A stretch of 64,000 bases of DNA from Candidatus Cloacimonadota bacterium (GCA_049903315.1 JBNGBT010000002.1:1-64000); one strand, 5' to 3'. Positions 28,219 to 53,723 are shown, counted from the stretch's first letter. Notes: generated by a model not told the origin, from the sequence alone. Numbers and translations: made by a program.

Positions 28219-28222
28219 CAGT

Positions 28223-32854: not shown

Positions 32855-34510
32855 ATGAAAAAAGTAATTTTCTTTTTCATTCTCATTATTGGGTTGTTCT
32901 CCGTTCAAGCTTTACTTGCTCAAGATAGTGTAGCCAAAGGTGTTATTAAACCCTCAGAAATACCCCCCGGCGCTACAGGATTGATATCAGTAACCTTTAC
33001 TATTCCTGAAGGAATGCATCAGACATTACAGGAAGATTATTTTTATATCGTAACTGACGAAGTTGATAGCATTGAATTTTTGCCCGTTCACTATCCTGAA
33101 GGCACTGAACATGAGGGGCTTATAGATTATTATGATTCTGTGATCCTTACTATGGAATTCATCGTAGCTGATGGTGCAAAGATAGGGGAGCGGGATGTAA
33201 AAGTATATGCAGGATACCAGTTCTGTGATGATGCGGGAATGTGTCATTTTCCTGAGGAAGATGAGCTTGTACTCTCTTTTGTTATCAGTGGTGAGCAACC
33301 TGTCAGTCCTACACAAAAGATTACCTCAACTGATACTAAGACTGAAGTAGCAAAGACATCTGGAACCGATTTTGCAGAGATTAAAAGTAAACTTGATGCG
33401 TTTGTCATGACGGACATTGCTGCCGGTTATCTAAAAAGTAAGGATTTCATCGCATTTGCAGAAAATGCAAAAACAGCAGATGGCTCATCTGCAAATAGAT
33501 TTGCAGGAATGAGTATCTGGCTTATTCTCCTTCTTATAGTTGTCGGAGGTATTGCCCTTAACCTTACTCCCTGCGTACTTCCAATGATGCCAATAACCAT
33601 TGCTGTACTCGGCGCAGGCACTCAGGCGGAATCCAAAGGGAAAGGTTTTTTGATCGGAGGTTTGTACGGAATTGGTATGATGCTGGCATACGGCGCGCTT
33701 GGTTTGATCGTGGTGCTTACAGGGTCGAGGTTTGGTGCAATAAATTCCTCTCCTCTATTTAACATAATAATTGCTGTCATTTTCATTTTACTCGCTCTTG
33801 CAATGTTTGATGTGTTCCCAATTGACTTCACAAAATTTCAGTCGGGCACAATGGCAGGTAAGAAATCAGGTAGGAGCAAATATATTACAGTATTTGTGCT
33901 GGGTGTGATAGCAGCTGTGCTTGCAGGTGCTTGCGTTGCGCCAGTGCTCATTTCAGTCATTTTGTATTCAGTCACATTATATACTTCAGGGAATCCGGCA
34001 GGCTTGCTTCTCCCCTTCCTCCTTGGCTTAGGCATGGCATTGCCATGGCCTTTTGTCGGTGCAGGACTTTCGATCCTTCCAAAACCCGGGAAATGGATGA
34101 AGTGGGTCAAGATCATTTTTGGTGTGATCATTCTCGTGATTGCACTTTATTATGGTTATACCGCTTTGCATATTTTCTCATCACAAGCACAGAACACAGA
34201 TCATGTAGTGGAATATACAGCAGAAGAAAACGAATCTGGCTTGTATTGGACTACCTCGCTAATGGATGGTCTTGAAAGAGCAAAAGAAGAGCGCAAACCG
34301 GTTCTCATTGATTTCTGGGCTACGTGGTGTAAAAACTGCCTTGCAATGGAAGCAACAACTTTCCGAGACGATGAAGTCGAAGAGGTTTTAAAGGATTTTG
34401 TTCTTGTCCGTTATCAAGCTGAGGATTTAAAGAAATCCCCAACAAAAGAGATACTCGATTACTACGATGTGCTCGGACTTCCTTCCTATGTCGTGCTTAT
34501 ACCCAAATAA
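32855..34510 (+). CDS. dsbD: Thiol:disulfide interchange protein DsbD (three-domain)
   Basis: N-domain QFCDDAGMCHFP; transmembrane domain LTPCVLPM and GACVAP; C-terminal thioredoxin DFWATWCKNC. Confidence 0.88.
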   Translation: MKKVIFFFILIIGLFSVQALLAQDSVAKGVIKPSEIPPGATGLISVTFTIPEGMHQTLQEDYFYIVTDEVDSIEFLPVHYPEGTEHEGLIDYYDSVILTMEFIVADGAKIGERDVKVYAGYQFCDDAGMCHFPEEDELVLSFVISGEQPVSPTQKITSTDTKTEVAKTSGTDFAEIKSKLDAFVMTDIAAGYLKSKDFIAFAENAKTADGSSANRFAGMSIWLILLLIVVGGIALNLTPCVLPMMPITIAVLGAGTQAESKGKGFLIGGLYGIGMMLAYGALGLIVVLTGSRFGAINSSPLFNIIIAVIFILLALAMFDVFPIDFTKFQSGTMAGKKSGRSKYITVFVLGVIAAVLAGACVAPVLISVILYSVTLYTSGNPAGLLLPFLLGLGMALPWPFVGAGLSILPKPGKWMKWVKIIFGVIILVIALYYGYTALHIFSSQAQNTDHVVEYTAEENESGLYWTTSLMDGLERAKEERKPVLIDFWATWCKNCLAMEATTFRDDEVEEVLKDFVLVRYQAEDLKKSPTKEILDYYDVLGLPSYVVLIPK

Positions 34511-34529
34511 TATTCAAGAGGTTTAAAAT

Positions 34530-35609
34530 ATGAAAAAATTTGCAGTATACTTCCTTGGAATTGTACTCGTGCTAACGATATTTTCCTGTGATAGATTTAA
34601 TCATCATTTTGATCCGTTCTTTACTCCATTCGAGCATTATTTGGAACGATTTGCAACTCATGTGGAAGATGGCATCTTATTTGATGATGTGGCATCTATC
34701 ATGTCCTACTATTCGGATACCTATCTGAACAACGGCGTGGAAAAATCAGGTATGGAGAATCTTTATACTTCCCTCGCTGATGCATCACCGGACAGCGTTG
34801 CAATTGAGATAGATATTCTCACAGAAGCTGAATATAAGGTATCATACCGTATTGTGACTGCAGGAGTTGATACCACTATTATTGACTATGCGCAAGCGCT
34901 GCGTGACAGCTTTCTTTTTATAGGAGATCAGATCGCACCACCGGTTCCACAAAAAGTATTGGTGGAAGTCATCACAGGTACATGGTGCCCGAACTGTCAC
35001 TATGCCGAGGAAGCACTTCAGCAGCTAAAACTGGAATATGGCGATTCCCTTTATTATATGGATTATCACTGGAATGACGTTCTGGACATCGGAGCGATAG
35101 AACTTATACAGTATTATGGGATGAACTATTCAGCTCCTCAATCTATGTTCCAGGGACAGGTAAATGTTACCGGCGGGGGGACAGAAACTTATGATCAATA
35201 CCTTAACACATTCACAACCTTGGCAAGTGAGGATGCTCTCGCACAGATCTTTGATTTCTCTTATACTGTTTCTGATACTCTATCAGGACAAGTTACGATA
35301 GACAAGGATGACACACTTCCACTAGTTGATTTATATCTTAAATATACGCTTGTTGAGAAGGTTTCATCAGTCAATGGATATAATGGAAGACCCTGCGAAC
35401 AGGTCGTTATCGCAAAAGGAATGAAAGATATAAGCAATGAAGATCTCGAAAACCCGGTTTCATTTAAGCTCGAAATGCCCCAAACAGTTCCGGATGATAT
35501 TGTGCTTTACATATGGTTGCAAACTCTTGCAGATCCGTATAATGCGGATACATGTAAAATATATAATGTCATTGAAGAAGATATTGTAATTGTGAAAGGG
35601 AGCAATTAA
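34530..35609 (+). CDS. Lipoprotein with an Omp28-like thioredoxin-fold domain (CPNC)
   Basis: Lipobox IFSC; KVLVEVITGTWCPNC; YH and cis-Pro-like SAPQSMFQG. Confidence 0.75.
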   Translation: MKKFAVYFLGIVLVLTIFSCDRFNHHFDPFFTPFEHYLERFATHVEDGILFDDVASIMSYYSDTYLNNGVEKSGMENLYTSLADASPDSVAIEIDILTEAEYKVSYRIVTAGVDTTIIDYAQALRDSFLFIGDQIAPPVPQKVLVEVITGTWCPNCHYAEEALQQLKLEYGDSLYYMDYHWNDVLDIGAIELIQYYGMNYSAPQSMFQGQVNVTGGGTETYDQYLNTFTTLASEDALAQIFDFSYTVSDTLSGQVTIDKDDTLPLVDLYLKYTLVEKVSSVNGYNGRPCEQVVIAKGMKDISNEDLENPVSFKLEMPQTVPDDIVLYIWLQTLADPYNADTCKIYNVIEEDIVIVKGSN

Positions 35610-36421
35610 TGAGAAAAATAAAAACTGTTCTGATAGTAAGTTTCATATTCTTCGCTTCCCTAACATTCGCATTGGACACGATGCCGGATTTCACACTTGA
35701 GGATATTAATGGTGACCAGGTAAATTTCGAAGAACTATTAAATAAAAAAGCTGTGATCATTGATTTCTGGGCGAAGTGGTGTACTCCATGCAAGAAAGCC
35801 CTCCCACATCTTAGTGATATTCAGTCAAAATATGATGATTTGGTAAATGTAGTATGTATTACCATTGATAAAGCGCGTGACAAAGGCAAGGTTAAATCTT
35901 TCGTGAAATCCAAGGACTATGAATTCATTACACTTTTTGACCCGAATCAAAGTGTATCAGATATGCTGAATATCATCTCGATCCCAAAGACTTTTATTGT
36001 TAATGAAGCCGGCGAGATCGTGTATACTCATGAAGGTTATACGCAGGGGGATGAAGTTGAACTGGAAGCTGAACTCAGGAAAATTATTTTTAAAAATATA
36101 ACTATGAAAGAGCTTAATAAAATATATCCCCAGGAAGAACTACCGGAGCCTACAACATATGTACTACCTGTGTATCCGGAAAAAGCTCATAATGACGGAA
36201 TCCAGACAGACATTATCCTTGATCTTGAAATTCTGGAGGATGGTACAGTGGGGGATGTGTGTGTTGTCAGTGCCTGTGAAGACCCAACTCATGGATTTGA
36301 GAATGCTGCGATAGAAGCAGCCGGGCAATGGGTATTCGAACCTATTACTATTGACAGCGTGTCCGTTAAAACCCGTGTCCTCTATCCAATTCGATTCAGA
36401 ATAGAAAAATATGAGAGGTGA
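35609..36421 (+). CDS. TlpA-family disulfide reductase fused to a TonB C-terminal domain
   Basis: PDFTLEDINGD, IDFWAKWCTPC, IPKTFIVN; then PVYPEKAHNDGIQ...EDGTV...FENAAIEAAGQWVFEP. Confidence 0.8.
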   Translation: MRKIKTVLIVSFIFFASLTFALDTMPDFTLEDINGDQVNFEELLNKKAVIIDFWAKWCTPCKKALPHLSDIQSKYDDLVNVVCITIDKARDKGKVKSFVKSKDYEFITLFDPNQSVSDMLNIISIPKTFIVNEAGEIVYTHEGYTQGDEVELEAELRKIIFKNITMKELNKIYPQEELPEPTTYVLPVYPEKAHNDGIQTDIILDLEILEDGTVGDVCVVSACEDPTHGFENAAIEAAGQWVFEPITIDSVSVKTRVLYPIRFRIEKYER

Positions 36422-36423
36422 TC

Positions 36424-37854
36424 ATGAAAAAAATCATACTATTGCTCGTCATCATATCCTTTGCTTCGTCCCTTTTTGCAGTGAACGATTTTCGCATAAT
36501 CGGTTTAAATGAGGCAACGTACGTTTATAAAAATGCAGAAGATTCCCTGAAGAATTATTTCTCGGATGAATTCAGTTTCAGATTGTCTTACAAAAATTTT
36601 ACATTTGGAATGAAGTTCATTGCGGATCTTCCCAGGTATGATGAATACGCTGCAATGCAGGATCTTACTTCTCAATCGATTTCGTATACATGGGATGAGC
36701 GGTTCCTTGAATATAAAGTGGATGATTTCTCTATACGTGCGGGAAACTTTGAGCAGGTCTTTGGTTCAGGTATTGCTCTTAGAGTCTATCAGGATAGAGA
36801 TTTCGATATTGATACCCGTCTGAATGGATTTTCGACAGAAATATTTCCAAAATTCTTTCAAATGAAAGCCCTGTATGGAGCACTGCCTAATAAGGATAAT
36901 GATACAAAGAATGACCTTGTCGCAGGACTTGATATGCAAAAAGATATATTTGATCCGCTCAAGGTTGGTGCATCTTTTGTGAATGTGCGCAAGTGGCAGG
37001 CAGGTGATAACTATCTGGATAGGAAGATATTTGGCGTTCGAGCCGATCTGGATGTCAGCTTATTCGATTTAAGTGCTGAATATGGCTATCTCGATCAATC
37101 CGAAGGCATTTCGAAGGTAGGACATGCTTTTTACGGAAATCTTAATACATATTTTGATATAATTTCTTTCTCTGTCGCATATAATAATTATTTAAATTTT
37201 GATTCACGTTTAAATGATCTTCCAATTCTCAATCACAGCAACGAACCCTTATACGATTCACCTATCGGAAAAGATCAGCAAGGTGTCATGGGTGAAGTAA
37301 CGTTCATGCCCAATGACTTTAATGAGATTATTGTTAATTATGCAGAAGAATGGAACAATGCATGGACGATCCGGCAGAGTGATCTGTGGGTTGAAGCAAT
37401 TCATTATTTTGACACTTCGACACTGGTCACAAGCTTTTCTCATCTTGAAAGAAAGGATGAAGAGGTGAACCACTGGGAAAAAGAAGTTACTCCTACTCTT
37501 ATGTATGATTTTATGATCGGGGAGACTCCTTTTTCCATAAAAGCGGAGTATCAGTATTTTGATAAACATTACCAGCAGGAAAAATCACATCATTGGGAAC
37601 CGCTTGTGCAAATCGATACGAATATCTTTGATTTTGATTTTTCAATCATTGCGGAATATTCGTATGAAAATATAAAAGATATTGGGAAAAATCCGCCATG
37701 GCTTGGTGCAGAGATAAGCAAAGAGATATTTCAGAGCTCGACAATGCGTCTTTTTATCGGCAAGGAAAAAGGCGGAAAGGTTTGCCGCAACGGCATTTGC
37801 AAATATCGCAACCAGTTTGAAGGATTACGTTTAGAATTAGTTACCACTTTTTAG
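36424..37854 (+). CDS. Outer-membrane beta-barrel (DUF6029-like) with C-terminal CxxxxC
   Basis: Signal peptide, amphipathic strands, RAGNFEQVFGSGIALR, GGKVCRNGICKY...GLRLELVTTF with terminal Phe. Confidence 0.72.
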   Translation: MKKIILLLVIISFASSLFAVNDFRIIGLNEATYVYKNAEDSLKNYFSDEFSFRLSYKNFTFGMKFIADLPRYDEYAAMQDLTSQSISYTWDERFLEYKVDDFSIRAGNFEQVFGSGIALRVYQDRDFDIDTRLNGFSTEIFPKFFQMKALYGALPNKDNDTKNDLVAGLDMQKDIFDPLKVGASFVNVRKWQAGDNYLDRKIFGVRADLDVSLFDLSAEYGYLDQSEGISKVGHAFYGNLNTYFDIISFSVAYNNYLNFDSRLNDLPILNHSNEPLYDSPIGKDQQGVMGEVTFMPNDFNEIIVNYAEEWNNAWTIRQSDLWVEAIHYFDTSTLVTSFSHLERKDEEVNHWEKEVTPTLMYDFMIGETPFSIKAEYQYFDKHYQQEKSHHWEPLVQIDTNIFDFDFSIIAEYSYENIKDIGKNPPWLGAEISKEIFQSSTMRLFIGKEKGGKVCRNGICKYRNQFEGLRLELVTTF

Positions 37855-37869
37855 TGGGAAGGAGCATAT

Positions 37870-38601: not shown

Positions 38602-38610
38602 GGAGAACTA

Positions 38611-40695
38611 ATGCGTTTTAAACTCGGAATACTGATTTCAGTGTTGTTGATCACGACCGGATTGTCGGAATTGTATGGAAACCAGAATATTCTCACACCT
38701 CAACTTCAGCAAAAGCTGCAGGAGAGCACTCGAGATGAATTAATACCCGTCAATATAATTATGAAAGAACAGTATGATCCTCAATATCTGTTACAGCAGA
38801 GTATGTTTCTTCCTATTTCAGAAAGAAGAAATTACGTCATCCAAGAGCTGCAATCCTTTTCTGATATGCATCAGCAAGAGCTTCTTTATGATCTGCAGAA
38901 CCTGTCTTACAACAATGTCGTGCAGGATATTCAATCCTTGTGGGTTTCGAATGTTATTGCCTGCAAAGCTACATCAGAAGTTTTATATGATCTAATGGAG
39001 CGGGATGACATTGAATTTATTGATCATGATGAGATACGAAATATGCTCATGTTTGAAAAAGGAAATACATATAATCCAACCTCTCGTGAGATCACGTGGA
39101 ATGTGACCAAGGTCAATGCTGATGATGTGTGGAATCTTGGATATACAGGAAGCGGTGTCGTGGTCGCAGTTATCGATACAGGCGTGAATTATAATCATGT
39201 TGACCTTGCTGATCATTTGTGGACTGATCCCGCATATCCAAATCATGGCTGGGATTTCCGCTATAATGATAATAATCCTATGGACGATCATGGGCACGGC
39301 ACACACTGCTCCGGTACAGTTGCCGGAGATGGAACTGCCGGTTCTCAGACAGGAATGGCACCAGATGCTCAGATCATGTGCCTTAAAGTTCTTGATAGTG
39401 ATGGCGGTGGCTCGGAATCCAACGTATGGAATGCAATTCAATTCGCTATTACAAATGGTGCAGATGTTGTTAGTATGTCCCTTGGTTGGCTGCATGCATG
39501 GTCACCAAATAGGGTAACATGGCGCAATACTATGAACACTCTCCTGGCAGCAGGCATCCCAGCTTCAGTTGCTGCAGGTAATGAAGGAGATCAACAGTAT
39601 TCATATCCGATTCCTGATAATGTTCGAACTCCCGGCGATTGCCCTCCTCCCTGGCTTCATCCTGATCAGACACTCATAGGTGGAATAAGCTCGGTCATTT
39701 GTATTGGTGCGACCAATTCCGGAGATGGGATTGCAGGTTTTTCAGGTCGAGGACCTTGTACATGGGAATATATATCCGGTTTCAATGACTATCCTTATTC
39801 TCCTGAAATCGGCTTAATACGTCCCGATATTGTTGCTCCCGGAGTCAACATCAAATCACTTGCTCATTATAGCAATTACGGGTATGAAAACGGTTGGAAT
39901 GGAACCTCAATGGCAACACCTTGCGCTGCTGGTGTGATGGCTTTGATGCTTTCAAAAAATCCAAACATACTTCCAGCTCAAATCGATCAAATTTTAGAAG
40001 AAACTGCATATGTGCTCTCAACATCAAAGAGCAATACATTTGGTTCAGGAAGAGTCGATGCACTTGCAGCAATAAATCAGGTTCCTTCCCCGAGTCCGAT
40101 CATGAACTTCTACCCGGATAGTCTTGACTTTGGAGATGTTCAGATTGGAGACGAATTAACTCAACAATTTTATATTGAAAATGTTGGTGGAGATACACTC
40201 CGCGGCACGATTAATGCGCCGGACGGATTCACCGTAACATTACATGGTTCAGATGAACCCGGCAGAAATACTCTTGAATATGCTGTTTCTTGCGGTTCGT
40301 GCACTGCATACGATCTCATTTTCTGCCCGACGAGTGTACAAACTTATGATGATTATGTCAGAATCAACCAGATCCCATTTTATATGTTCTATCTTGATGT
40401 ATGTGGTGAAGGATGTCCTGAAGTAGGTGTTGATCAAAATCCTCATACGAAGCCCTTTATAGAGCATTTTCCAAATCCTGTCACATCAACGCTGAACATG
40501 CACTACTCACTAAATAATCAGCAGGATGGCCTGCCTATCACAATCTATAATATTAGAGGTGAATTTATCACTACGATCCAAGGGCATGACGGCATCGCGA
40601 GTATGGATGTGAGCTCTTTGAATTGTGGTGTATATTTTTATAAAATAAATCATCAGGGAATATCATATTCCAATAAATTCATAATACTAAAATAA
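38611..40695 (+). CDS. S8 subtilisin-like serine peptidase with Ig-like and C-terminal sorting domains
   Basis: Catalytic triad VAVIDTG, HGHGTHCSG, GTSMATP; FPNP...GVYFYK tail. Confidence 0.92.
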   Translation: MRFKLGILISVLLITTGLSELYGNQNILTPQLQQKLQESTRDELIPVNIIMKEQYDPQYLLQQSMFLPISERRNYVIQELQSFSDMHQQELLYDLQNLSYNNVVQDIQSLWVSNVIACKATSEVLYDLMERDDIEFIDHDEIRNMLMFEKGNTYNPTSREITWNVTKVNADDVWNLGYTGSGVVVAVIDTGVNYNHVDLADHLWTDPAYPNHGWDFRYNDNNPMDDHGHGTHCSGTVAGDGTAGSQTGMAPDAQIMCLKVLDSDGGGSESNVWNAIQFAITNGADVVSMSLGWLHAWSPNRVTWRNTMNTLLAAGIPASVAAGNEGDQQYSYPIPDNVRTPGDCPPPWLHPDQTLIGGISSVICIGATNSGDGIAGFSGRGPCTWEYISGFNDYPYSPEIGLIRPDIVAPGVNIKSLAHYSNYGYENGWNGTSMATPCAAGVMALMLSKNPNILPAQIDQILEETAYVLSTSKSNTFGSGRVDALAAINQVPSPSPIMNFYPDSLDFGDVQIGDELTQQFYIENVGGDTLRGTINAPDGFTVTLHGSDEPGRNTLEYAVSCGSCTAYDLIFCPTSVQTYDDYVRINQIPFYMFYLDVCGEGCPEVGVDQNPHTKPFIEHFPNPVTSTLNMHYSLNNQQDGLPITIYNIRGEFITTIQGHDGIASMDVSSLNCGVYFYKINHQGISYSNKFIILK

Positions 40696-40700
40696 TTATC

Positions 40701-43304
40701 ATGAAAATCAAAAAAAGTAAGATAGTCATTCCTATATTCTTATGCGCTGCAATTATTGCAGTTGTACTTATTTCCATCCCAAAACCAGCTAGTAAAGGCA
40801 AACCTGCAGAACGCTGGGTAGAAAAACCACACGGTCAAAAAGTTAAAAAAGAGCCCGATGTGCTGCCCAATGAATGGATGGCTTACCAGCGCGTTTATCC
40901 CTATGATAAGATCAAGCTCGAGAACTATCTTAAAAGCATGGAAGATGCCCAGAAACTTCACAAGGAGTCCGCTCATTATAAATATTCCTGGGAGTTAGTA
41001 GGACCTACCAATATTGGTGGGCGCATCACTGATCTTGCGGTAAATCCTAATGATCTGAATACTTACTACGTGGGAGCTGCATCCGGCGGAGTGTATAAAA
41101 CCATAAATGGCGGTGCGAGCTGGGAAAATATTTTTACCGATGTACCTGTTATTTCTGTGGGTGCTATTGCACTTGATCCAAACAATGTAACTACTCTTTA
41201 TGTCGGGACAGGTGAAGCGAATGCATCGAGTTACAGTTTTCTTGGGAACGGCATATATAAGTCCACAAATGGCGGTCTGTCATGGGACAATATTGGTTTA
41301 GAACAATCCGGCTATATTGGCAGGATCGTGGTAGATTATATGAATTCTCAGAGAGTGTTCGTGGCAGCGTGCGGAAATCTCTTCTCACCAAATTCCGAAA
41401 GAGGAGTATATCGCAGTGATGATGGTGGGGAGACCTGGCAGCGAAAACTCTTCATTAATGATTCCACTGCAGCAGTCGATATTGTTCAACATCCAACCAA
41501 TCCGAATATTCTCTATGCCGCAATGTGGGAGCGTATGCGCGGTTTGACGTACAGACGATCCTTTGGTCCGAGTTCCGGTATCTGGAAATCAGAAAATGGC
41601 GGAGATACCTGGACTGAGCTTACAAATGGTTTGCCAACGGGCAGTGATGTAGGACGAATCGGACTCGCAATTGCAAAATCTAATCCTGATAGGCTTTATG
41701 CATTTTATGATAGAACAAACCAGGTTGATGTCTACAAAACAAGCAATGGCGGAGCAAGCTGGACTGCAACCAATGATGGAGCACTGCAGGGAATAAACAG
41801 CAATTTCGGCTGGTATTTCGGCCAGATCCGGGTCGATCCAAATGACCAGGATCGAGTATATGTTATGGGAGTGTACCTGTACCGTACAACAAATGGAGGT
41901 TCAAGCTGGAGTGAAATCGCATATAGTGTGCATGTTGACCATCATGCAATGTATATTGATGAAGATACAGGATTTATTATCGAAGGAAATGACGGCGGTC
42001 TTTATACCAGCTCAAATTCGGGCTCTTCTTGGTCAAAAATAAATAACCTACCCATGACGCAATTCTATGCAATCGAGATCGATCAAACCTATCCTTACAG
42101 AATCTACGGCGGTACTCAGGATAATAATACGATCCGGACTATGACAGGTGCACTTAATGATTGGGAAGCAATTTTGGGCGGAGATGGATTCTACTGCTTG
42201 GTAGATTACACAAATCCTAATAGAATCTTTGCAGAATACCAATGGGGCAACCTATACCGGTCAACCAACGGAGGTTCATATTTCAGCTATATTGCAAATG
42301 CAATGAGTGGCGACCGAACAAACTGGTCTTCTCCCTATGTGATGCATCCAACAAATCCTGATATTCTCTACTTTGGCACGTATAGAGTATGGAAAACAAC
42401 GAATGGAGGATCAAACTGGTCAGCAGTAAGCGGAGATCTTACTCAGGGTGATGATATAAGTGGTTATCATACAATCTCAACAATGGCTATCTCCACACTT
42501 GACCCTGGTCTTATTCTTACAGGCAGTGATGACGGACGAGTTCATATTTCCGATAATAGTGGGACTTCATGGACAAATATTTCTGTAGGTCTGCCTGATC
42601 GCTGGATTACGAGAGTGGCATTTGATCCTCATAATGCAACTACCATCTATGCAACGATTTCCGGTTTTCGCTGGGATGAAGAAGCCCCCCATGTTTTTAA
42701 ATCTACTAATCTTGGATTGGACTGGGTAAATATTAGCGGAAATCTTCCTGAAATGCCCGTGAACTGCATTGCCCTTGATCCGAATATCCAGAATAAAATA
42801 TTTGTTGGAACGGACTCGGGTGTATTTTTCTCTGAAGATGGAGGCTTTAGCTGGCACAGTCTTTCCCAGGGAATCCCCAATGTTCCTGTTACTGATATGA
42901 AAATTTATAATCCTGATCGATTTATGGTCATCGGCACATACGGCTGTTCTGCATATAAGATCGATCTTGACGACATTATTGTGAGTACTGATCCTGAACC
43001 GGACGAGCACGTGCTTGTACAACTCTATCAGAACTATCCCAATCCTCTTTCATTATCTTCACATGCATCAACGCAGATCGATTTCTCTCTGAGTACTCCT
43101 GCTGATATAGAAATTACAATCTATAATATAAAAGGTCAGAAAGTAAAAAACATAATGAACAATCAATTGGCAGCTGGGGATCATAATGCACTATGGAATG
43201 GTACTGATGAATTCGGTAAATCCGTTTCCACAGGAGTGTATCTTTACAAGCTGTCTGTTAATGGAAATGTAAAGCAAATCAAACGATGTACAATAATACA
43301 ATAA
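40701..43304 (+). CDS. BNR/Asp-box (VPS10/GH74-like) beta-propeller protein with C-terminal sorting domain
   Basis: GPTNIGGRI; many SxNGGxxW Asp boxes; GGTQDN, GGDG; QNYPNP...GVYLYK tail. Confidence 0.88.
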   Translation: MKIKKSKIVIPIFLCAAIIAVVLISIPKPASKGKPAERWVEKPHGQKVKKEPDVLPNEWMAYQRVYPYDKIKLENYLKSMEDAQKLHKESAHYKYSWELVGPTNIGGRITDLAVNPNDLNTYYVGAASGGVYKTINGGASWENIFTDVPVISVGAIALDPNNVTTLYVGTGEANASSYSFLGNGIYKSTNGGLSWDNIGLEQSGYIGRIVVDYMNSQRVFVAACGNLFSPNSERGVYRSDDGGETWQRKLFINDSTAAVDIVQHPTNPNILYAAMWERMRGLTYRRSFGPSSGIWKSENGGDTWTELTNGLPTGSDVGRIGLAIAKSNPDRLYAFYDRTNQVDVYKTSNGGASWTATNDGALQGINSNFGWYFGQIRVDPNDQDRVYVMGVYLYRTTNGGSSWSEIAYSVHVDHHAMYIDEDTGFIIEGNDGGLYTSSNSGSSWSKINNLPMTQFYAIEIDQTYPYRIYGGTQDNNTIRTMTGALNDWEAILGGDGFYCLVDYTNPNRIFAEYQWGNLYRSTNGGSYFSYIANAMSGDRTNWSSPYVMHPTNPDILYFGTYRVWKTTNGGSNWSAVSGDLTQGDDISGYHTISTMAISTLDPGLILTGSDDGRVHISDNSGTSWTNISVGLPDRWITRVAFDPHNATTIYATISGFRWDEEAPHVFKSTNLGLDWVNISGNLPEMPVNCIALDPNIQNKIFVGTDSGVFFSEDGGFSWHSLSQGIPNVPVTDMKIYNPDRFMVIGTYGCSAYKIDLDDIIVSTDPEPDEHVLVQLYQNYPNPLSLSSHASTQIDFSLSTPADIEITIYNIKGQKVKNIMNNQLAAGDHNALWNGTDEFGKSVSTGVYLYKLSVNGNVKQIKRCTIIQ

Positions 43305-43321
43305 AACAAAAAGGATATCTC

Positions 43322-45499: not shown

Positions 45500-45555
45500 C
45501 TGATACTCAATTTAGAAGATACATAGAGCAGGATGTCGTAGTCCTGCTCTTTTTT
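45422..45555 (+). repeat. 134-bp direct repeat copy 1 (gene 3' end, stop and terminator)
   Basis: Near-identical to 47769..47902; contains the terminator AGAGCAGGAT-GTCGTA-GTCCTGCTCT-T5 at 45525..45555. Confidence 0.9.
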
Positions 45556-45767
45556 GTATGGAAAAAACTTCCAATTATAATCCAGTTAGCGGATATCCGA
45601 ATATTTGTATGTGCAAGAAAAATAAATTTGACAACAAAGAAAAATAAATTTCGAATTTACTTAAGTAAAGTTGATGCTGGTTTTATATGCTTACTGGACG
45701 GAAAATATCATGAAAAAATGGAAAAAAGACTGTAAACAATTTATTTTAACTTCATAATGGAGGAATA

Positions 45768-47846
45768 ATGAAAAAGTGTATTATGTGTTTTATACTTTGT
45801 CTTTTTATGGTTGGTACTACATTAGCTCAGGATGGTAAAGACTATGGTGTCCCAGATTGGGAGTTCATTCAGGAACCCACAACACTCACGGGTTTTACAA
45901 ACTACTATGACTACATGCCCGGAAGTCTCTGTGGTCATCCTATTATGCGTCAACCTGATTGTTATGGCGGAGTATATTTTACCTTTCACGGACGTCCAAA
46001 TATTATAGATAATAGAAGAGTTTATTGGGCATATGTTCATCCAAATGGTGCAATAGAATATGCGACAATCACAACTTCAGACACATACGAGGGTTATCCA
46101 AGTTTGACAATACATCCTGCTTCCGGTGATCCTATTGTTTCATGGCATGATATTTTGGGACCATCCACTCCAGAAGATACAAATACTCGTGCGACGTTTG
46201 ATGACTATGGATTACTCTACATTCCCGGTTTCTGGAAAACTCCAGTAGCCTTTGATCAACCTGTTCCTTATGTTGAAGAGTATTTATGGCCTTACGTGTT
46301 TATTGGAAAAGCTCCGGATTATGTGACTACTGGTAATTATCGTCTATATCAGATAAGTGAACAAGGTCCTGACGGTGAGATTGAACATCCCATACTTCGT
46401 TGGATCGACGTTCCGGAAGATTCTTATGTGTACGGTGATCTTGATATAATGCTTGATAAGACCAATTGGCACCCTCCAGTTAACATTGCACGCGACTGGT
46501 CAGATCCCGATGCAGGTATTTCCTGCCGTCCATATCCTTCCTTTGCGGTAGATCCATTCACGCCCGGTCACGTTGCAATATTTGGTTATGCATGTTATGT
46601 AAACGGACTTACAGGAAATGAAATTGTTCCACAGGGATTCTATGTATGGGATTCCTATGATGGGGGAGAAACATGGTCATATGATAATTTTCATTCGTAT
46701 GAAACCGATGTAGGCATGCTGAATGAATATGTATTATATGCGGTTGAGAATATTCCTGGTTTTACTGATGATGAAGGCATTCCCTTTGATTCGCTTCATG
46801 TGTGGGTTGGTTTCCCCGGTAATTACTGTTCAACTAATCGAACTGCTGTTTTTGACAGGGAGGGTAATCTTCACTTACCGGAACTTTTCTGGATCAGCTA
46901 TGTTGATGAGGAGATCGGTTCTGTAACATATTGGCCCGAATACGCTTTCTTGTTCCAAGCAGAAGTTGTATATAAATCCGACGGCACATGGGACATTCGA
47001 CATGTTGCAAATATGTCAGGAACGGATGCATGGACAGGTCGCAGTGTTCCCTGGGAAATCGATCCTGTAAGTGGAGATACATTGATATACCCATGGTGTG
47101 ATATAGCAACTAATGATTATTCACCAAGCGGTTATGTAAATCTCCAATATCAGGCAGTATGCCTTGAACAAGATTGGATGGCACATGTGTGGGTAAGTGG
47201 TACGAAAATGCTCGAAGCTGAATTTGGCCCTGTCCCTTTGTTTTATTATCATCATCCAATCATTTATATCGCGATATCAAATTGTAATGGTGAATGGTGG
47301 TATGATCCAATAGAGCTATCAGATATTTTCAGTACTGCATATCCTGGCTTCGCAGATATGATAACGGTCTATCCGTATGTAAATCCAATTATAAAGGATC
47401 TCGGAGATGGTTGGGGACAGATCGATATGTACTTTCTTGATGATAATGATTATGGGAGTTCAATCAGCGGTTTAGGAAATAGTACGGGTGGTCAAATGGT
47501 TTATTGTTCTTTCAAATTTTATTATTATGTACCACTGTCAGTTGATCCTTCATATCCAGGAGCTGAATCTTCGCTTACTCTTTTCAATGTTCCCAATCCC
47601 TTCAAATCAAATACACTTATACAGCTTTCTGCTTCTTGTGGAATTGAGAATGCAAAAATAAATATTTATAATCTGCGAGGTCAGCTTGTAAAATCATTAG
47701 ATTCAATTACAGATACTCATAATGAAGGGCATGTAACATGGGATGGCACAAATCAAAATGGTAATACAGTTTCCAACGGAATTTACTTCTACAAATTCAA
47801 AGCAGGAGATCTGGAAAGAACACAAAAATTGATCTTGATGAGATAG
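45768..47846 (+). CDS. Secreted acidic, aromatic-rich protein of unknown function with C-terminal sorting domain
   Basis: GGAGG RBS, signal peptide, one Asp-box-like SYDGGETW, tail NVPNPF...WDG...SNGIYFYKF. Confidence 0.8.
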   Translation: MKKCIMCFILCLFMVGTTLAQDGKDYGVPDWEFIQEPTTLTGFTNYYDYMPGSLCGHPIMRQPDCYGGVYFTFHGRPNIIDNRRVYWAYVHPNGAIEYATITTSDTYEGYPSLTIHPASGDPIVSWHDILGPSTPEDTNTRATFDDYGLLYIPGFWKTPVAFDQPVPYVEEYLWPYVFIGKAPDYVTTGNYRLYQISEQGPDGEIEHPILRWIDVPEDSYVYGDLDIMLDKTNWHPPVNIARDWSDPDAGISCRPYPSFAVDPFTPGHVAIFGYACYVNGLTGNEIVPQGFYVWDSYDGGETWSYDNFHSYETDVGMLNEYVLYAVENIPGFTDDEGIPFDSLHVWVGFPGNYCSTNRTAVFDREGNLHLPELFWISYVDEEIGSVTYWPEYAFLFQAEVVYKSDGTWDIRHVANMSGTDAWTGRSVPWEIDPVSGDTLIYPWCDIATNDYSPSGYVNLQYQAVCLEQDWMAHVWVSGTKMLEAEFGPVPLFYYHHPIIYIAISNCNGEWWYDPIELSDIFSTAYPGFADMITVYPYVNPIIKDLGDGWGQIDMYFLDDNDYGSSISGLGNSTGGQMVYCSFKFYYYVPLSVDPSYPGAESSLTLFNVPNPFKSNTLIQLSASCGIENAKINIYNLRGQLVKSLDSITDTHNEGHVTWDGTNQNGNTVSNGIYFYKFKAGDLERTQKLILMR

Positions 47847-47902
47847 CTGATACTCAATTTAGAAAATATATAGAGCAGGATGTCACAGTCCTGCTCTTTT
47901 TT
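47769..47902 (+). repeat. 134-bp direct repeat copy 2 (gene 3' end, stop and terminator)
   Basis: Matches 45422..45555; terminator hairpin at 47872..47902. Confidence 0.9.
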
Positions 47903-48071
47903 ATTATATGAATTAGTAATTTCATCTGGCAATTTTGCGGTTAAATAGAGAGCAATTATACATATTTATCCCATAAGAAAGGACGAAATTTAGAACTCAA
48001 TTAATTCCAGAAAAATTTGACAAAAAATTAGGGTATTTCCCAATGAAATAAATTAATTTCAGGAGGAGCAG

Positions 48072-49994
48072 ATGAAAAAATTAGCTGTTCTCATATTTCT
48101 TATGATCCTCTCATCAACAGTTTTTGCAGCGTATCAGGTCGGCGATGTAGTTTCAAATTTCAGCTGGACTGATAACACAAGCACAACGCATAATATTTAT
48201 GACCTCATCGACGCGGAAAAAGCGATCGTATTTTTCTGGGGAGGTACTGGTTGAGGTGGCTGTGTTTCGGCGGCGCCGCAATTAGAAACTATCTGGCAAA
48301 ATTACCAAGGAACCGGTCATTGTTACATTCTTTCCGAAACCGACTGGACTTCTTATGGAGCAACATATTTTAATTCTTATGATATCGATCCTTATTACTC
48401 TCAATATGGAAACGGGTTTATTCCATTTTTTGCTGTCATTGGTGGTGAATACAAATTGTATTACGGAGACAATAGTGTGGGTAGTGTACCAGCTGCGCTG
48501 GATGCTGCCATTGCATCCTTGGGTTTATATGCAAATTTTGATGCAAATATAACTCAGGGACCTCCAGAACTCACTGTGCAGTTTACCAGCACATCGTCAG
48601 GTGCTCCGGATGCATGGGACTGGGATTTCAACAATGACGGTACCATTGATAGTCACGAAGAAAATCCTGTGTGGACCTACACCGGAGTTGGTTCTTATGA
48701 TGTTTCTCTTACAGTTTATGAAGGAGCTGATAGCGATGAACTCATTCAAGAGGACTTTATTACTGTTCTCGATCCATCGAATGTATCCGGTGAATGTGCT
48801 GGAAATTGGTCACCCACTTATGGAACGTACACGATTACTGGGAATGTTACCGTTCCTGTCGGTACGGTTCTGTCGATCGAGCCAAGCACGAATATCGTTG
48901 TAAATAATGGCAGCAAGATTGAAGTGAAAGGCAGAATTGAAGCACAGGGTTCAGAACGTGGATTGATACACTTCTCAACCGGCACTACATGGAAAGGTGT
49001 AAAGATAATCGATAGTCAAGAAGACAATGTGATCGATTTATGCTATTTCACAGGTTGTACAGAAAGTGCAGTTGATATTGATAATTCTACAGTAGATGTT
49101 CTCAACAGCACGTTTTATGAAAATACCAATACGAATCAAAAAGGTCCTGCTATAAATGTATTAGATGCCAGTGATGTCCTTATAATGGGTAATTCAATTG
49201 CAAATAACTATAGTTCTGTCCTTTCAGGTGGTATTGTGCTCGATAATGCCTCGGTTGAGATTTCCCATAATATCATTGTGAATAACGAAGCTACTTTTGC
49301 CGGTGCAATTGGAATGAAAAATGGATCTGATGCATCACTTATCAATAATACGATTGCAAACAATGTCGGGAGCTATGCCTGTATTTATCTTATATCCTCT
49401 TATCCGAATGTACTCAATACGATCATCATTCATGATGGTTTGATATTCACGACATTCAGCAGTAATCCAATAGTAAACTATTCCTGTATCTCAGGCGGAT
49501 ATTCCGGAACAGGAAATATCAGCGATGATCCGGAATTTGTGACTCCCTCTGCAGGGGACGGCATTGCCTATGATGGTTTAGCTGCAAACTGGAATCTGCA
49601 AGAAACTTCTCCGTGTATTGATGCGGGAGATCCTTCCTCACCTCCTGACCCTGACGGCACGATTGCAGATATGGGTGCTTTGTACTATCATCAGGTAGTC
49701 TCGGTTGACGATCCACACAGCAACATGATCTATGTCAGACAGAATGCACCGAATCCTTTCAAAGGTTCTACTTCAATATCCTATTCATTGCCAAAGAATT
49801 CCGAAAATGCTGTCATCACGATCTATAATGTCAAAGGTGATGTTGTGAAGGAATTTACTCTTGAAAACACAGAAGGTGATATCATATGGAATGGTATGGA
49901 TCAGAATAATAATGCTGTTGCAAGCGGAGTTTATTTTTATAAACTGCAAGGAGATTCCATTTCTCAGACCAGGTCAATGGTCTTCATGAAGTAG
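48072..49994 (+). CDS. Secreted selenoprotein 2 (640 aa, Sec61): AhpC/TSA-TlpA-like UxxC fold, PKD, beta-helix, C-terminal sorting domain
   Basis: ORF 48072..48254 ends in TGA (48252), but the frame stays open: ...KAIVFFWGGTG[U]GGCVSAAPQLETIWQNY...FIPFFAVIG, joining ORF 48456..49994 with no other stop. AGGAGG RBS and signal peptide. Confidence 0.9.
48264..48289 (+). promoter_or_regulatory. Putative bacterial SECIS hairpin 2
   Basis: Apical CGGC-GGC-GCCG (48268..48278), with the loop 17 nt after the TGA; flanking GTTT/AAAC can form a lower stem. Confidence 0.65.
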
Positions 49995-50022: not shown

Positions 50023-50117
50023 TGAGAGGAAGGAACTGGTGTTCCAGCTGGTCTTCAAAATCAGTAGTGAGCGGATAACACCGTTTATGGCAGGTTCGAT
50101 TCCTGCCCTCTCGGCCA
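50023..50117 (+). tRNA. selC: tRNA-Sec (anticodon UCA)
   Basis: Acceptor TGAGAGG/CCTCTCG; D arm GGAAC-TGGT-GTTCC; 6-bp anticodon stem with loop CTTCAAA (TCA at 50055..50057); long variable arm; T arm GCAGG-TTCGATT-CCTGC; G discriminator and CCA; immediately before selA. Confidence 0.95.
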
Positions 50118-50145: not shown

Positions 50146-51525
50146 ATGGATAAAAACGAACTCAGAAAAATTCCCGGAGTGGATACCTTGAAAAAGACCT
50201 CAAAGATTAAAGAACTCATTTCTGAATTTGGAGAAGAACTCACAGTTTTCTCAATCCGCCAGGTATTGGATAAGGTAAGAGAATCTGTTCTACAAGGGAA
50301 GAGAATTCCATCCGAAGATAAGATGCTTGCTATGATCGGGCAGAGAATAAATAATATTGGTTCCCAATCATTAAAACCAATGATCAATGCGACGGGTATC
50401 GTGCTGCATACAAATCTTGGGCGAGCCCCACTGGGTGAAGTACTCACAGAGGAAGTATCCAGAGTAATTCACGGATACTCCAATCTTGAGTTCGATTGTG
50501 AAAAAGGAAAGCGGGGTCACAGGGGAAACCATATCACTGATCTTATTACTTTTATTACAGGCGCAGAAGATGCAGTTGTCGTAAATAATAATGCAGCAGG
50601 TGTGTACCTGTCTCTCAGAACATTTTCAAAAGGTAAAGAAGCAATCATATCTCGCGGTGAACTGATAGAGATAGGTGGCTCATTCCGCATACCTGATATC
50701 ATGAAACAAAGCGGTGCGAAAATGATCGAAGTGGGTACAACAAATCGTACACGCCTATCAGATTATGAAGCAGCAATTACTGACAAAACTGCGGTACTGT
50801 TCAAGGCACACAAATCAAATTATTATATAGAAGGATTTTCCGAGGAAGTAGAGATAGAAGCTCTTGCGCAGCTCGCGCATGATAAGGAACTCATGTGTGT
50901 TTTTGATTTGGGATCGGGATTACTGAGAAAACCAACGGGGCTCTTATTAGAAACTGAACCGGATGTTCATAGTGCAATTGCGTCCGGTGCCGATCTCGTG
51001 ATGTTCAGTGGTGATAAACTTCTGGGTGGTCCTCAAGCAGGCATTATTGTCGGCAAAAAGAAGTATATTCAGAAATTGAAGAAATCACCACTTATGCGTG
51101 TACTTCGGGTAGGAAAAATGACGCTTGCAGCACTCTCTGCAGTGATCCGATGCTATCTCAAAGATGAAACACTCCTTGAAAATGTGCCAGTTTTCCACTT
51201 GCTGGATCAGAAAAAAGACGAACTGCAAGAGAAAGCACTACAGTTTTCAAAACTCCTTTTAAAAGAAAAAATTCCTAATATAATTATTGAAAATACGGCT
51301 CATTGCGGCGGAGGGACTCTTCCACAAGTTGAAATTCCCAGTTTTGCAGTGCGGCTTGATCTCTTAAAAACAAGGATTACTCCAGAACAGCTTTACCATC
51401 AATTGCTTCAATTAGAGAAACCTATTCTCGGTATTCTTCGCGAGGGTACGATACTCTTTGATGTGTTCACTTTAACTGAAGACCAGTTTGAATACATAGC
51501 AAAGCAAATAGTTGCTTTTAATTGA
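50146..51525 (+). CDS. selA: L-seryl-tRNA(Sec) selenium transferase
   Basis: INATGIVLHTNLGRAP, YSNLE, VVNNNAA, SRGELIEIGGSFRIPD, PLP-lysine FSGDKLLGGPQAG. Confidence 0.97.
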   Translation: MDKNELRKIPGVDTLKKTSKIKELISEFGEELTVFSIRQVLDKVRESVLQGKRIPSEDKMLAMIGQRINNIGSQSLKPMINATGIVLHTNLGRAPLGEVLTEEVSRVIHGYSNLEFDCEKGKRGHRGNHITDLITFITGAEDAVVVNNNAAGVYLSLRTFSKGKEAIISRGELIEIGGSFRIPDIMKQSGAKMIEVGTTNRTRLSDYEAAITDKTAVLFKAHKSNYYIEGFSEEVEIEALAQLAHDKELMCVFDLGSGLLRKPTGLLLETEPDVHSAIASGADLVMFSGDKLLGGPQAGIIVGKKKYIQKLKKSPLMRVLRVGKMTLAALSAVIRCYLKDETLLENVPVFHLLDQKKDELQEKALQFSKLLLKEKIPNIIIENTAHCGGGTLPQVEIPSFAVRLDLLKTRITPEQLYHQLLQLEKPILGILREGTILFDVFTLTEDQFEYIAKQIVAFN

Positions 51526-51541
51526 GTGGTACATTGAAAAC

Positions 51542-51710: not shown

Positions 51711-51788
51711 CAGTCTATTTGTTTTACTTTAACATCCCAATTAAAATTATATGCAAACGAATTATAAAGAGTATCAAACAAAAACGTC

Positions 51789-53723
51789 ATGAAGCATTTG
51801 ATAATGGGTACAGCAGGTCATGTTGACCACGGCAAAACTGCGCTCATCAAGGCACTGACAAATTTTGATTGCGACACGCACAAGGATGAGAAAAAACGAG
51901 GGATCACTATTCATCTTGGTTTCACACATCTCGATCTACCGAATGGGAACAGCATCGGTATAATTGATGTGCCCGGGCATAAAGATTTCATCAACACGAT
52001 GATATCTGGAGCCAGCACAATTGATTTTGTGCTTTTTACTGTCGCTGCAGACAGCAGTATCATGCCGCAAACGAGCGAGCATCTGCATATTATGGAGCTT
52101 CTGGGTATCAAAAACGGCATTATTGCACTAACAAAATGCGATACAGTTGATGAAGAAATATTGGAACTCGTTGAGCTTGAAATTGACGAGTTCGTTGCAG
52201 GTACATTTCTTGAGCACGCTCCGATCATTAGAACATCTACAAAAGATAATATGGGAATGAGTGAATTAATGAGTGAGATCAGTAAAATCACAGAGAAAAT
52301 TGAGCAGCGATCATCCGGATTATTTTTCAGAATGTACATCGACAGGATTTTCAGCGTTCAAGGTTTTGGTACGGTTATAAACGGGTCGGTTTTGCAAGGA
52401 AGCGCAACAAAGAATACAGTTTTGTATTTACTCCCCGGGAGTAAAGAATTGAGGATTCGCAAGATGGAACATCACGGGAAAGAGGTGAATGAAGTGGTAT
52501 CCGGTCAGCGAGCTTCTTTGAATGTGGTGGGACTGGATATACAGAATTTCCAGCGTGGAATGATGGTATCAGAAAGAATCATAAAACCTACAAAAATGAT
52601 CGATGCGGAACTCACTTTATTTGATCATGACAGAACTTTCGGAATATGGAATCATGCCCTTTTTCTCATGGGTACTTTTGAAGATCAAGTAAGGATACAT
52701 TTACTCGATAAAGATACTTTACAAGGTGGTGAAAAAGGATTGGTGCAGATACATCTTGAAAAAGAATGCTTTCCAATTTTTGGAGATTCATTCATTATCA
52801 GGAGCACGTCCGGAGATATTACACTTGGGGGAGGTAAGGTGCTGGATGCATATCCCCTTCATCATAAAAAGCGAACTCCGCAAATCATGGAACATATACA
52901 GACAATTGCGGATGGGGGTTTGCCGGCATTCATCGCAGCTGAGGTGAGAAAGCGACCTCATGCAGTTCCTCTACCATTTCTTGCAGAAATTTCTAACATT
53001 CCTGAACAAGAATTGAAAGAAATAGTATTAGCTTCCATTCCCGATGATATCGAGATAAGAGAAGTCAATCAAAAAATATTATTAGTAGCTCTCTCAAGAA
53101 TTGGACTGATTAAAGGAAAAATTACCAAAATACTCACGAAGCATCACACGGAGAATCCGCTTATACAAAGGGGAAAAACCTTCGAAGAATTATCCAGTCT
53201 ACTGAATCTGGGCACAGAATATGACGTTTCATTCTTGAGTATGCTGTTGGAAGAAATGAGTAATAATAAAGTTCTGCGTAAGATTGAAGGAACGTATGCT
53301 CTTAAAGAAAAGGATAATTCGCCTTCCGATCAAGAAATAAAAAAGATAAAGAAAATCGGACAATTCATATTGAGTTTTGGTATGAAAGTTCCTTTAATGA
53401 ACGAGATAAAGGAATTTGGCCAGACACAGGGAATGTCTCAGAAAGAACTGCATGATATTATCAATTTTCTTATTGAAAATAAAGAAATCGTTACGATCGA
53501 AGGTTCGTTTATTCACGCAGCGATCATTGAAAAAGCGAAGAATGTGTTAATCGCACATTTCGAAAAGAATGAGACGCTCATGCTTGCTGATTTTCGTGAT
53601 AACTTGCAGGCAAATAGGAAGATATGCCTGTTGTTACTCTCTTATTTCGATGATAAGGGATGGACTGTTCGCAAAGGTGATTATCGGATATTGTCCGAAA
53701 AAGGTAAGGAGTTATTACACTGA
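51789..53723 (+). CDS. selB: Selenocysteine-specific elongation factor
   Basis: GTAGHVDHGKT, EKKRGITI, DVPGH, IDRIFSVQGFGTV; C-terminal winged-helix FRD...RK....L.YFD..G.T.R.GDYR. Confidence 0.97.
   Translation: MKHLIMGTAGHVDHGKTALIKALTNFDCDTHKDEKKRGITIHLGFTHLDLPNGNSIGIIDVPGHKDFINTMISGASTIDFVLFTVAADSSIMPQTSEHLHIMELLGIKNGIIALTKCDTVDEEILELVELEIDEFVAGTFLEHAPIIRTSTKDNMGMSELMSEISKITEKIEQRSSGLFFRMYIDRIFSVQGFGTVINGSVLQGSATKNTVLYLLPGSKELRIRKMEHHGKEVNEVVSGQRASLNVVGLDIQNFQRGMMVSERIIKPTKMIDAELTLFDHDRTFGIWNHALFLMGTFEDQVRIHLLDKDTLQGGEKGLVQIHLEKECFPIFGDSFIIRSTSGDITLGGGKVLDAYPLHHKKRTPQIMEHIQTIADGGLPAFIAAEVRKRPHAVPLPFLAEISNIPEQELKEIVLASIPDDIEIREVNQKILLVALSRIGLIKGKITKILTKHHTENPLIQRGKTFEELSSLLNLGTEYDVSFLSMLLEEMSNNKVLRKIEGTYALKEKDNSPSDQEIKKIKKIGQFILSFGMKVPLMNEIKEFGQTQGMSQKELHDIINFLIENKEIVTIEGSFIHAAIIEKAKNVLIAHFEKNETLMLADFRDNLQANRKICLLLLSYFDDKGWTVRKGDYRILSEKGKELLH

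Follow-up and report, generated by a model that had tools for sequence, protein, structure and literature searches.

A conserved Cloacimonadota gene cluster joining DsbD, a lipoprotein, a TlpA-like protein, a cysteine-hairpin barrel and predicted secreted selenoproteins: a candidate thiol/selenol-reducing module of the cell envelope

Proteins of the DsbD family are reduced by cytoplasmic thioredoxin and feed pathways that run from DsbD to CcmG, DsbC and DsbG in Escherichia coli and from CcdA to ResA in Bacillus; further such pathways lead from TlpA to ScoI and CoxB in Bradyrhizobium and from ScsB to TlpA-like/PprX partners in Caulobacter. Here we describe a gene cluster in a window of 64,000 nucleotides (nt), which covers positions 1-64000 of contig C22 in a Cloacimonadota genome of 2.96 Mb and 96% completeness. 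In this cluster, genes for a DsbD (g1), a lipoprotein (g2), a TlpA-like protein (g3) and an outer-membrane barrel (g4) are followed by six genes (g5-g10) whose products carry type IX secretion system (T9SS) tails, two of them predicted selenoproteins, and then by selC, selA and selB. We read the cluster as one envelope thiol/selenol-reducing module with its far end in the outer membrane and give this reading a probability of about 0.4. The data show the gene content and its conservation, the invariant pairs of cysteine and selenocysteine (Sec), the folds and the Sec decoding signals; the electron-transfer steps are proposed.

The likeness to the DsbD pathways lies in a six-cysteine, three-domain DsbD beside a secreted TlpA/ResA-like WCxxC protein. 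The clients of those pathways are periplasmic, whereas the co-conserved partners here are an outer-membrane barrel, a lipoprotein and T9SS-exported proteins. LptD-LptE consists of a lipoprotein plug in a 26-strand barrel, and the disulfides of LptD matter for its assembly; it resembles our locus in that a large barrel is co-encoded with a lipoprotein, while a g4-g2 complex would be hypothetical and there is no sequence relation. MtrCAB of Shewanella (6r2q) shares the concept of a wide barrel that lets a redox protein link the periplasm and the outside, but MtrCAB is haem-based; no haem proteins are present here, and thiol/selenol chemistry would need protein-protein contact. HBP35 of Porphyromonas gingivalis is a T9SS cargo with an N-terminal thioredoxin domain, and in g8 a head of this kind is likewise joined to a T9SS tail; however, g2 is a lipoprotein and not a T9SS cargo, and g8 and g10 have PKD and beta-helix domains in addition and are predicted to use Sec. 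HBP35 is reported to be surface-attached, active as a thioredoxin in vitro and required for growth at low hemin (PMC2907840). Omp28 (NF033782, 2r2c) and the Omp28-related selenoprotein family NF045500 have no attached function and are matched far below their curated cut-offs, by g2 (22.8 bits against NF033782, cut-off 150) and by the g8 head (82.1 bits against NF045500, cut-off 200). Since a model such as NF045500 exists, Omp28-type selenoproteins are already known to NCBI curators.

All parts of the cluster belong to known families, and what appears to be new is the operon that links them. Our literature search found no conserved operon in print that joins DsbD, TlpA, a Cys-hairpin barrel and thioredoxin or selenoprotein heads, and none of the literature retrieved treated Omp28 together with selenoproteins. 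Selenoproteins and T9SS occurred together only in passing, as judged from the listing of hits, and the search for Cloacimon* with selenocysteine returned work on tRNA-Sec only. A term search of two Cloacimonadota genome papers gave no text on selenium, thioredoxin, DsbD or disulfides. To our knowledge, no outer-membrane thiol system of this kind has been described.

The conservation of the cluster was followed in 201 genomes of the phylum, in 20 fetched regions, none longer than 20 kb, that represent nine or more families, and in 80 further loci from a barrel-alignment search, some of which are the same places as the first 20 regions. The barrel is found in 177 of the 201 genomes, mostly with one match each. 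The order g1-g2-g3-g4 is kept in 20/20 regions, and among the further loci g3 is present in 71/74, g2 in 66/66, g1 in 55/57 and all three in 53/57. Because it is conserved across the phylum, this core arrangement is far beyond chance. A T9SS protein with a g8-type or g10-type head lies within about 8 kb downstream of the barrel in 16 of the 20 regions, and a relative of g5 follows the barrel on its 3' side in 14/20 regions and 41/66 loci. The core unit, g1-g4, usually followed by g5 and by T9SS proteins with thioredoxin-like heads, is therefore smaller than the first-pass annotation had claimed. The order of the core genes held up in its proposed test of synteny, but the other members are not supported as parts of the system: the S8 protease (g6) and the propeller (g7), named there as co-encoded proteins that the relay could service, lie downstream of the barrel in only 5/36 and 2/36 loci, g9 is near it in 0/36, selA is within 8 kb of it in 2/36, and TonB_C is fused to TlpA in 6/74 loci, close relatives only. 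Judged from these neighbourhoods, the S8 protease, the propeller, g9, the TonB_C fusion and the adjacency to selCAB are restricted to this genus or family. Family f5 is reduced, and neither the barrel (0/6) nor the heads (0/6) were found in it; PorU had no match in any of the five of these genomes that were searched for it. The 80 loci are all from Cloacimonadota, two of them labelled Armatimonadota; in these two (L117 and L119) the cluster has the usual Cloacimonadota make-up and the barrels share 35-36% identity with g4, and the label is probably a binning error in the source genomes.

The cysteine pairs proposed as redox sites turned out to be invariant or nearly so. In g2 the lipobox Cys20 and C153xxC156 are kept in 21/21 orthologues, as are C58xxC61 (WCTPC) of g3 and the C456-x4-C461 pair, the only cysteines of g4; the single pair of g5 is kept in 15/15. 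All six cysteines of DsbD are kept in 20-21 of 21 orthologues, namely C124-x5-C130 of the alpha domain in 21/21, C240 and C360 of the membrane domain in 21/21 and 20/21, and the C-terminal C492xxC495 in 20/21 (Table 1).

Table 1 Features of the gene cluster, with positions in the 64,000-nt window.
Feature	Position	Strand	Basis or detail
g1, three-domain DsbD (alpha Ig-like, membrane, C-terminal thioredoxin)	32855..34510	+	PF02683, PF13899, weak PF11412
g2, 359-residue lipoprotein: NTF2-like N-domain, WCPNC thioredoxin domain, HBP35/Omp28-type beta-sandwich	34530..35609	+	model and Foldseek
g3, TlpA/ResA-like WCTPC thiol:disulfide oxidoreductase fused to TonB_C	35609..36421	+	PF00578, PF08534, PF03544
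g4, plug-less DUF6029 outer-membrane barrel, ~24 strands	36418..37854	+	PF19494 and structure model
g5, small T9SS-tailed protein, Ig-like body, one Cys pair C79-x8-C88	37870..38601	+	TIGR04183 35.3 bits
g6, S8 subtilase with T9SS tail	38611..40695	+	PF00082 186.5 bits
g7, Sortilin/Vps10-type propeller with T9SS tail	40701..43304	+	PF15902 105.5 bits; NF045728 148.6 bits (below cut-off)
g8, predicted secreted selenoprotein: signal peptide, Omp28/HBP35-like head (U35-G-Y-C), PKD, beta-helix, T9SS tail	43322..45499	+	
g8 in-frame TGA	43424-43426	+	FTSTS-U-GYC
g8 hairpin	43438-43458	+	9-bp; -18.9 kcal/mol, z -1.8
Terminator-like hairpin	45525-45550	+	after g8; 10-bp stem, then T run
g9, T9SS-tailed, body unrecognised	45768..47846	+	matches to tail domains only
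Terminator-like hairpin	47872-47897	+	after g9
g10, predicted secreted selenoprotein: signal peptide, TlpA-like thioredoxin head (U61-G-G-C), PKD, beta-helix, T9SS tail	48072..49994	+	
g10 in-frame TGA	48252-48254	+	GGTG-U-GGC
g10 SECIS-like hairpin CGGC-GGC-GCCG	48268-48278	+	11 nt, starts 13 nt after UGA
selC, tRNA-Sec, anticodon TCA	50023..50117	+	ARAGORN; Rfam RF01852 57 bits
selA, selenocysteine synthase	50146..51525	+	PF03841 454.6 bits
selB, Sec-specific elongation factor	51789..53723	+	PF00009 (GTP_EFTU) 117 bits, PF09107 (SelB-wing_3) 48.8 bits, PF25461 32.5 bits

The barrel g4 belongs to the DUF6029 family (PF19494, 76.7 bits, cut-off 27); the 30 best Protein Atlas matches of g4 all carry PF19494, and its nearest named relatives are from Candidatus Celaenobacter. 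The structure model, with a predicted local distance difference test (pLDDT) value of 92.3, has about 24 strands and no plug domain. In this model the two cysteines lie in a hairpin (453-457/460-464) between the last two barrel strands and oppose each other across an NG turn. The even-numbered strand connections are 2-5 residues long and the odd-numbered ones reach 26 residues. Since short even turns and long odd loops follow the usual rule for outer-membrane proteins, strand counting would place the hairpin (453-464) in the last external loop. The first-pass annotation had the barrel ending in CRNGIC; the barrel is there, but the motif stands 18-23 residues before the C-terminus. A profile search returned 1450 representatives of the barrel family, and among the best 150 of them the hairpin was checked in the full-length ones: all 121 carry C-x(3-6)-C before the last strand, and no other part of the family is as well conserved as this hairpin. 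In Foldseek the solved folds nearest to g4 are those of the FimD/PapC ushers, of MtrB and of TonB-dependent transporters. By length-normalised score the ushers come first (TMq 0.55-0.59); MtrB ranks 11th, with a likeness of the general kind seen among large barrels, and LptD (5ixm) also appears in the list. FimD/PapC have 24 strands, like the g4 model; unlike LptD and the ushers, to which it has no sequence relation, g4 has no plug or periplasmic domains.

The lipoprotein g2 had no match in Pfam. Its predicted model (pLDDT 91.7) matches HBP35 (5y1a) best in Foldseek, with an E-value of 1.9e-11 over 257 aligned columns, followed by the DUF1223 protein 2axo and the Omp28 domain 2r2c. On the basis of this model, the likeness of g2 to Omp28 appears to be one of fold. 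Weak sequence matches at the active site also link HBP35 with the profile of g2 and with the g8 head, and the g8 head is homologous to the thioredoxin part of g2. When the barrel (residues 22-478) and the lipoprotein (21-359), each entered as an alignment, were predicted as a complex, the score was 0.25 and the mark 0.32. In some families (L036, L037, L038, L044) the N-terminal domain of the lipoprotein is duplicated, giving proteins of 460-487 residues.

At the inner end of the cluster, g1 matches PF02683 (DsbD_TM) with 131.8 bits and PF13899 (Thioredoxin_7) with 52.1 bits; PF11412 (DsbD_N, 19.8 bits, cut-off 25) and the NCBIfam model PRK00293 (211 bits, cut-off 330) remain under their cut-offs. 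It has the DsbD_TM domain with two cysteines, the cysteine pair of the alpha domain and the CxxC thioredoxin domain by which a DsbD is recognised. The g3 product scores above the cut-offs of PF00578 (AhpC-TSA, 76.2 bits) and PF08534 (Redoxin, 71.9 bits) and matches PF03544 (TonB_C) with 47.8 bits. As the NCBIfam equivalog models for ResA and TlpA both score below cut-off, g3 is best placed in the TlpA/ResA/CcmG family as an orthologue of neither ResA nor TlpA. The cytochrome c assembly gene PF01578 had no match in the source genome, so the usual client of TlpA/ResA is missing, and a role of DsbD and TlpA in cytochrome c maturation was rejected for this reason.

Open reading frame lists agree with the proposed run of ten genes on the + strand at 32855-49994, the domain matches and motifs of g1-g4 fit the composition proposed for them (three-domain DsbD, CPNC lipoprotein, CTPC TlpA-TonB_C fusion, barrel), and ARAGORN, Rfam and Pfam place selC, selA and selB directly after the ten genes, as had been claimed. 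The spacing between g1 and g8 ranges from an overlap of 4 nt to a gap of 19 nt; g2 and g3 share 1 nt, and g3 and g4 share 4 nt. The tRNA-Sec gene lies 28 nt 3' of g10. Because terminator-like hairpins follow g8 and g9, the ten genes probably form at least three transcription units, g1-g8, g9 and g10, the last perhaps with selC and selA. The two hairpins are nearly identical, with loops that differ by 2 nt, and resemble a repeated terminator cassette travelling with T9SS cargo genes. Single copies of g1, g2, g4, the g8-type head and the g10-type head are present in the source genome. The genes directly upstream of dsbD (28187-32734) encode a histidine kinase with PAS and a response regulator of the REC-3xPAS-HD-GYP type; they were considered as members of the module and rejected, since they are kept in only four close relatives. 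Two tandem paralogues of 501 residues each, with anti-sigma-type HATPase_c_2 and GNAT domains, are found at 56065-59154.

All six proteins g5-g10, described before as signal-peptide proteins with T9SS-like tails, pass TIGR04183 (31-38 bits, cut-off 23) and show N-terminal hydrophobic leaders. The source genome holds a T9SS core (SprA_N 104 bits, PorU 534.6 bits; PorV-like barrels below cut-off). Tail, leader and core genes together mark g5-g10 as predicted T9SS type A cargo. The genome holds 168 T9SS tail loci within its 2.96 Mb, so that a T9SS-tailed gene next to the core counts for little by itself. A Protein Atlas search with the g5 body returned only unnamed T9SS-tailed clusters. In some families (L036, L038, L040, L046-L048) the g5 body is found inside larger proteins of 447-685 residues, and the one in L038 starts with an Omp28-like head whose cysteines have been lost. 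The bodies of g8 and g10 (PKD and beta-helix) are 47% identical; their heads are unrelated, and no curated family matched the g10-type head.

Both g8 and g10 contain the in-frame TGA in a UxxC motif that had been claimed for two T9SS-tailed proteins. Read through the TGA, each has its signal peptide upstream and its T9SS tail downstream, with U at the position of the thioredoxin CxxC. Genes selA, selB and selC are joined by two copies of selD, one 12.7 kb beyond selB and the other on a separate contig. The first (C22:66431-67354) lies within a frame of 747 residues and is probably a fusion; the second (C55:243658-244584) has an in-frame TGA and would be a Sec-containing SelD. Two further T9SS-tailed frames on C22, which end beyond the window at 68748 and 309396, carry an in-frame TGA in C-x-G-U-G-[ST]-T-P-P-G.

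The g10-type head occurs in 46 of the 201 genomes, and 52 of its 54 matches carry exactly one TGA; a Cys form was not found among the genomes searched. The 11-nt element of g10, which resembles a selenocysteine insertion sequence (SECIS), is identical in 30/30 fetched loci, each time 13 nt after the TGA, and shows no covariation. Its alanine codons are GCG in 60/60 cases, against 6.7% elsewhere in the same genes, and its proline codon is CCG in 29/30, against 12% elsewhere; the G+C content of third codon positions (GC3) elsewhere in these genes is 29%. Since synonymous sites are fixed, the element appears to be under selection at the RNA level, as would be the case for a SECIS apical hairpin. 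The g8-type head is found in 173/201 genomes, in TGA and non-TGA forms that split by lineage; UxxC stands at one site in 21/21 fetched TGA forms, and CxxC takes its place in nine forms of other lineages. RNAalifold found only two pairs and no common structure in 17 g8-type TGA regions. Cys-form g8-type heads (L034-L038, L047, L048) have a GC-rich hairpin over the A-R-x-G codons after CxxC, with Arg CGG in AT-rich genes; this hairpin may be the fossil SECIS of a Sec ancestor or a mere consequence of the protein motif.

The proposed co-variation of Sec and Cys heads with the sel genes was borne out. TGA heads are found only with Sec machinery; selA occurs in 94/201 genomes and in 0/88 of family f6, where three of the four regions examined carry a CxxC head. 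Four genomes (G112, G126, G163, G087) with TGA heads and no selA match were considered as exceptions and rejected; a tRNA-Sec over cut-off and SelB were found in them, and we therefore regard the missing selA as an assembly gap. One could argue that both TGAs are genuine stops, lesions of pseudogenes or errors of sequencing, since translation with table 11, like standard gene callers, splits both genes, the g8 hairpin has only a modest advantage over shuffled sequences and the g8 type has no common structure. However, the TGA recurs at the same codon in 52 of the 54 g10-type matches and at one site in the g8 type, where other lineages have Cys, coding features continue on both sides of it, the SECIS-like element is synonymously fixed, and selA, selB, selC and selD are all present. 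The view that these codons are stops, lesions or errors is close to refuted, and g8 and g10 are very probably both selenoproteins, as predicted from these codons and their contexts.

A related cassette occurs outside the phylum. Among 10 distant barrels looked up, one is a named protein of candidate division WOR-3, and a search with it gave six metagenome loci whose barrels are 22-30% identical to g4 over the aligned parts. In all four loci with an upstream flank, TlpA is directly 5' of the barrel, and a lipoprotein of about 250 residues with an Omp28-like E-x-F-T...UxxC site is directly 5' of TlpA. One contig (L183) also holds selA and a T9SS-tailed C-S-G-U-G protein, which resembles the two C22 frames in its motif and lies between the lipoprotein and TlpA. 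After the barrel, L183:8080-10432 and L184:8594-10982 encode a membrane protein of the Fer4_5 type together with a pyridine-nucleotide disulfide oxidoreductase, a pair that could be an alternative electron input in WOR-3-like lineages.

How might these proteins work together? Cytoplasmic thioredoxin would reduce DsbD, as is established for the DsbD family, and DsbD may in turn reduce the periplasmic TlpA-like g3, by analogy with CcmG, ResA and TlpA. The TlpA-like protein would hand reducing equivalents to an outer-membrane station made of the barrel g4 and the lipoprotein g2. The thioredoxin domain of g2, docked at or in the wide barrel, could then reduce the external hairpin and the surface heads, so that the final clients would be the Cys hairpin of g4 and the CxxC or UxxC heads of surface T9SS cargo, here with Sec in g8 and g10. 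The surface heads would finally reduce external disulfides or oxidants. In this genus TlpA has gained TonB_C, which would tether it under the outer membrane, the operon has taken up the genes of the protease and the propeller, and selC-selA-selB stand next to the cluster. A relay to the outer membrane is favoured because no conventional client was found and because the co-conserved proteins are all outer-membrane or exported proteins with one redox-type pair each. We put forward a bolder form of the proposal only tentatively and regard it as rather unlikely: the lipoprotein-TlpA-Cys-hairpin-barrel cassette might be a thiol/selenol electron conduit through the outer membrane, a counterpart of MtrCAB that is widespread in T9SS-bearing phyla (Cloacimonadota, WOR-3-like) and continuously recharges surface thioredoxin-like enzymes, obligate extracellular selenoproteins among them. 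Such enzymes would reduce disulfides or oxidised sulfur compounds outside the cell so that an anaerobic fermenter can digest them.

Several points weigh against a reducing module that ends in the outer membrane. Electron transfer, including the crossing of the outer membrane, is a proposal at every step here, and we know of no precedent for thiol-disulfide exchange across that membrane. The external site of the g4 hairpin comes from counting strands in a predicted model, not from coordinates or experiment, and the sequence does not tell whether g2 faces the periplasm or the surface. In four of the 20 regions (family f10) no thioredoxin-headed gene lies near the barrel, and an adjacent DsbD is absent from the fetched WOR-3-like cassettes. 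The counts also make the support look stronger than it is, since related genomes do not count as independent cases. Finally, as the folding of T9SS cargo takes place in the periplasm, the heads could already be charged by TlpA at that stage, which would leave the barrel unexplained.

This last point leads to the main rival, an explanation confined to the periplasm, in which DsbD and TlpA keep the Cys/Sec pairs reduced or correctly paired in transit, much as ResA and CcmG act on apocytochrome c, and nothing crosses the outer membrane; the exported heads would act stoichiometrically or be re-reduced by sulfide in an anoxic habitat. It draws on established ground, as T9SS cargo passes the periplasm before export and pathways from DsbD to TlpA-type proteins are well known, and it fits the single conserved Cys/Sec pair of every client and a gene packing tight enough for co-expression. 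Yet it gives no reason why TlpA is always directly followed by a large barrel that lacks a plug and keeps an invariant Cys hairpin, it leaves unexplained why this hairpin is the most conserved part of the barrel family, and a dedicated transit reductase is little needed in a strict anaerobe. We consider this explanation possible but doubtful. Handling of haem or metal appears unlikely. Here the HBP35/Omp28-like domains would bind haem or a thiophilic metal through Cys/Sec, the barrel would be the channel for uptake or export, and DsbD and TlpA would only keep the ligand cysteines reduced. TlpA has such a role for the copper sites in ScoI and CoxB, TonB-dependent transporters are among the folds that the barrel resembles, TonB_C is attached to TlpA in this genus, and the best structural match of g2 is the hemin-binding HBP35 with its reported role at low hemin (PMC2907840). 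On the other side, g4 lacks a plug domain and a TonB box was not identified in it, TonB_C is limited to the few fusions counted above, none of the proteins gave a match to a haem- or metal-binding family, and UxxC/CxxC at the N-terminus of the first thioredoxin helix is a classic redox site.

The heads and sel genes could also be chance neighbours of a unit, g1-g4, with an unrelated outer-membrane task such as polysaccharide export. The abundance of T9SS tail loci and the rarity of sel adjacency would fit this, as would the likeness of DUF6029 to Wzi-type barrels near polysaccharide export genes that another study notes from HHpred (PMC9603273). But heads homologous to the thioredoxin domain of g2 follow the barrel across families in the 16 regions noted above, the heads are single copy in the genome with both copies in the cluster, and no polysaccharide export genes were found among the domain matches of the flanking genes. 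We regard such a chance arrangement as very unlikely.

The cluster bears on the question of how thiol enzymes at the Gram-negative cell surface stay reduced; for HBP35 of the gum pathogen P. gingivalis, the abstract of the study names no electron donor (PMC2907840). One conserved operon holds a complete candidate supply line, so that genetics and thiol trapping can address the question directly. With g8 and g10, the bacterial selenoproteome also gains predicted selenoproteins of a secreted, T9SS-targeted kind. If the barrel does pass reducing equivalents, it would be a new way to move electrons across the outer membrane.

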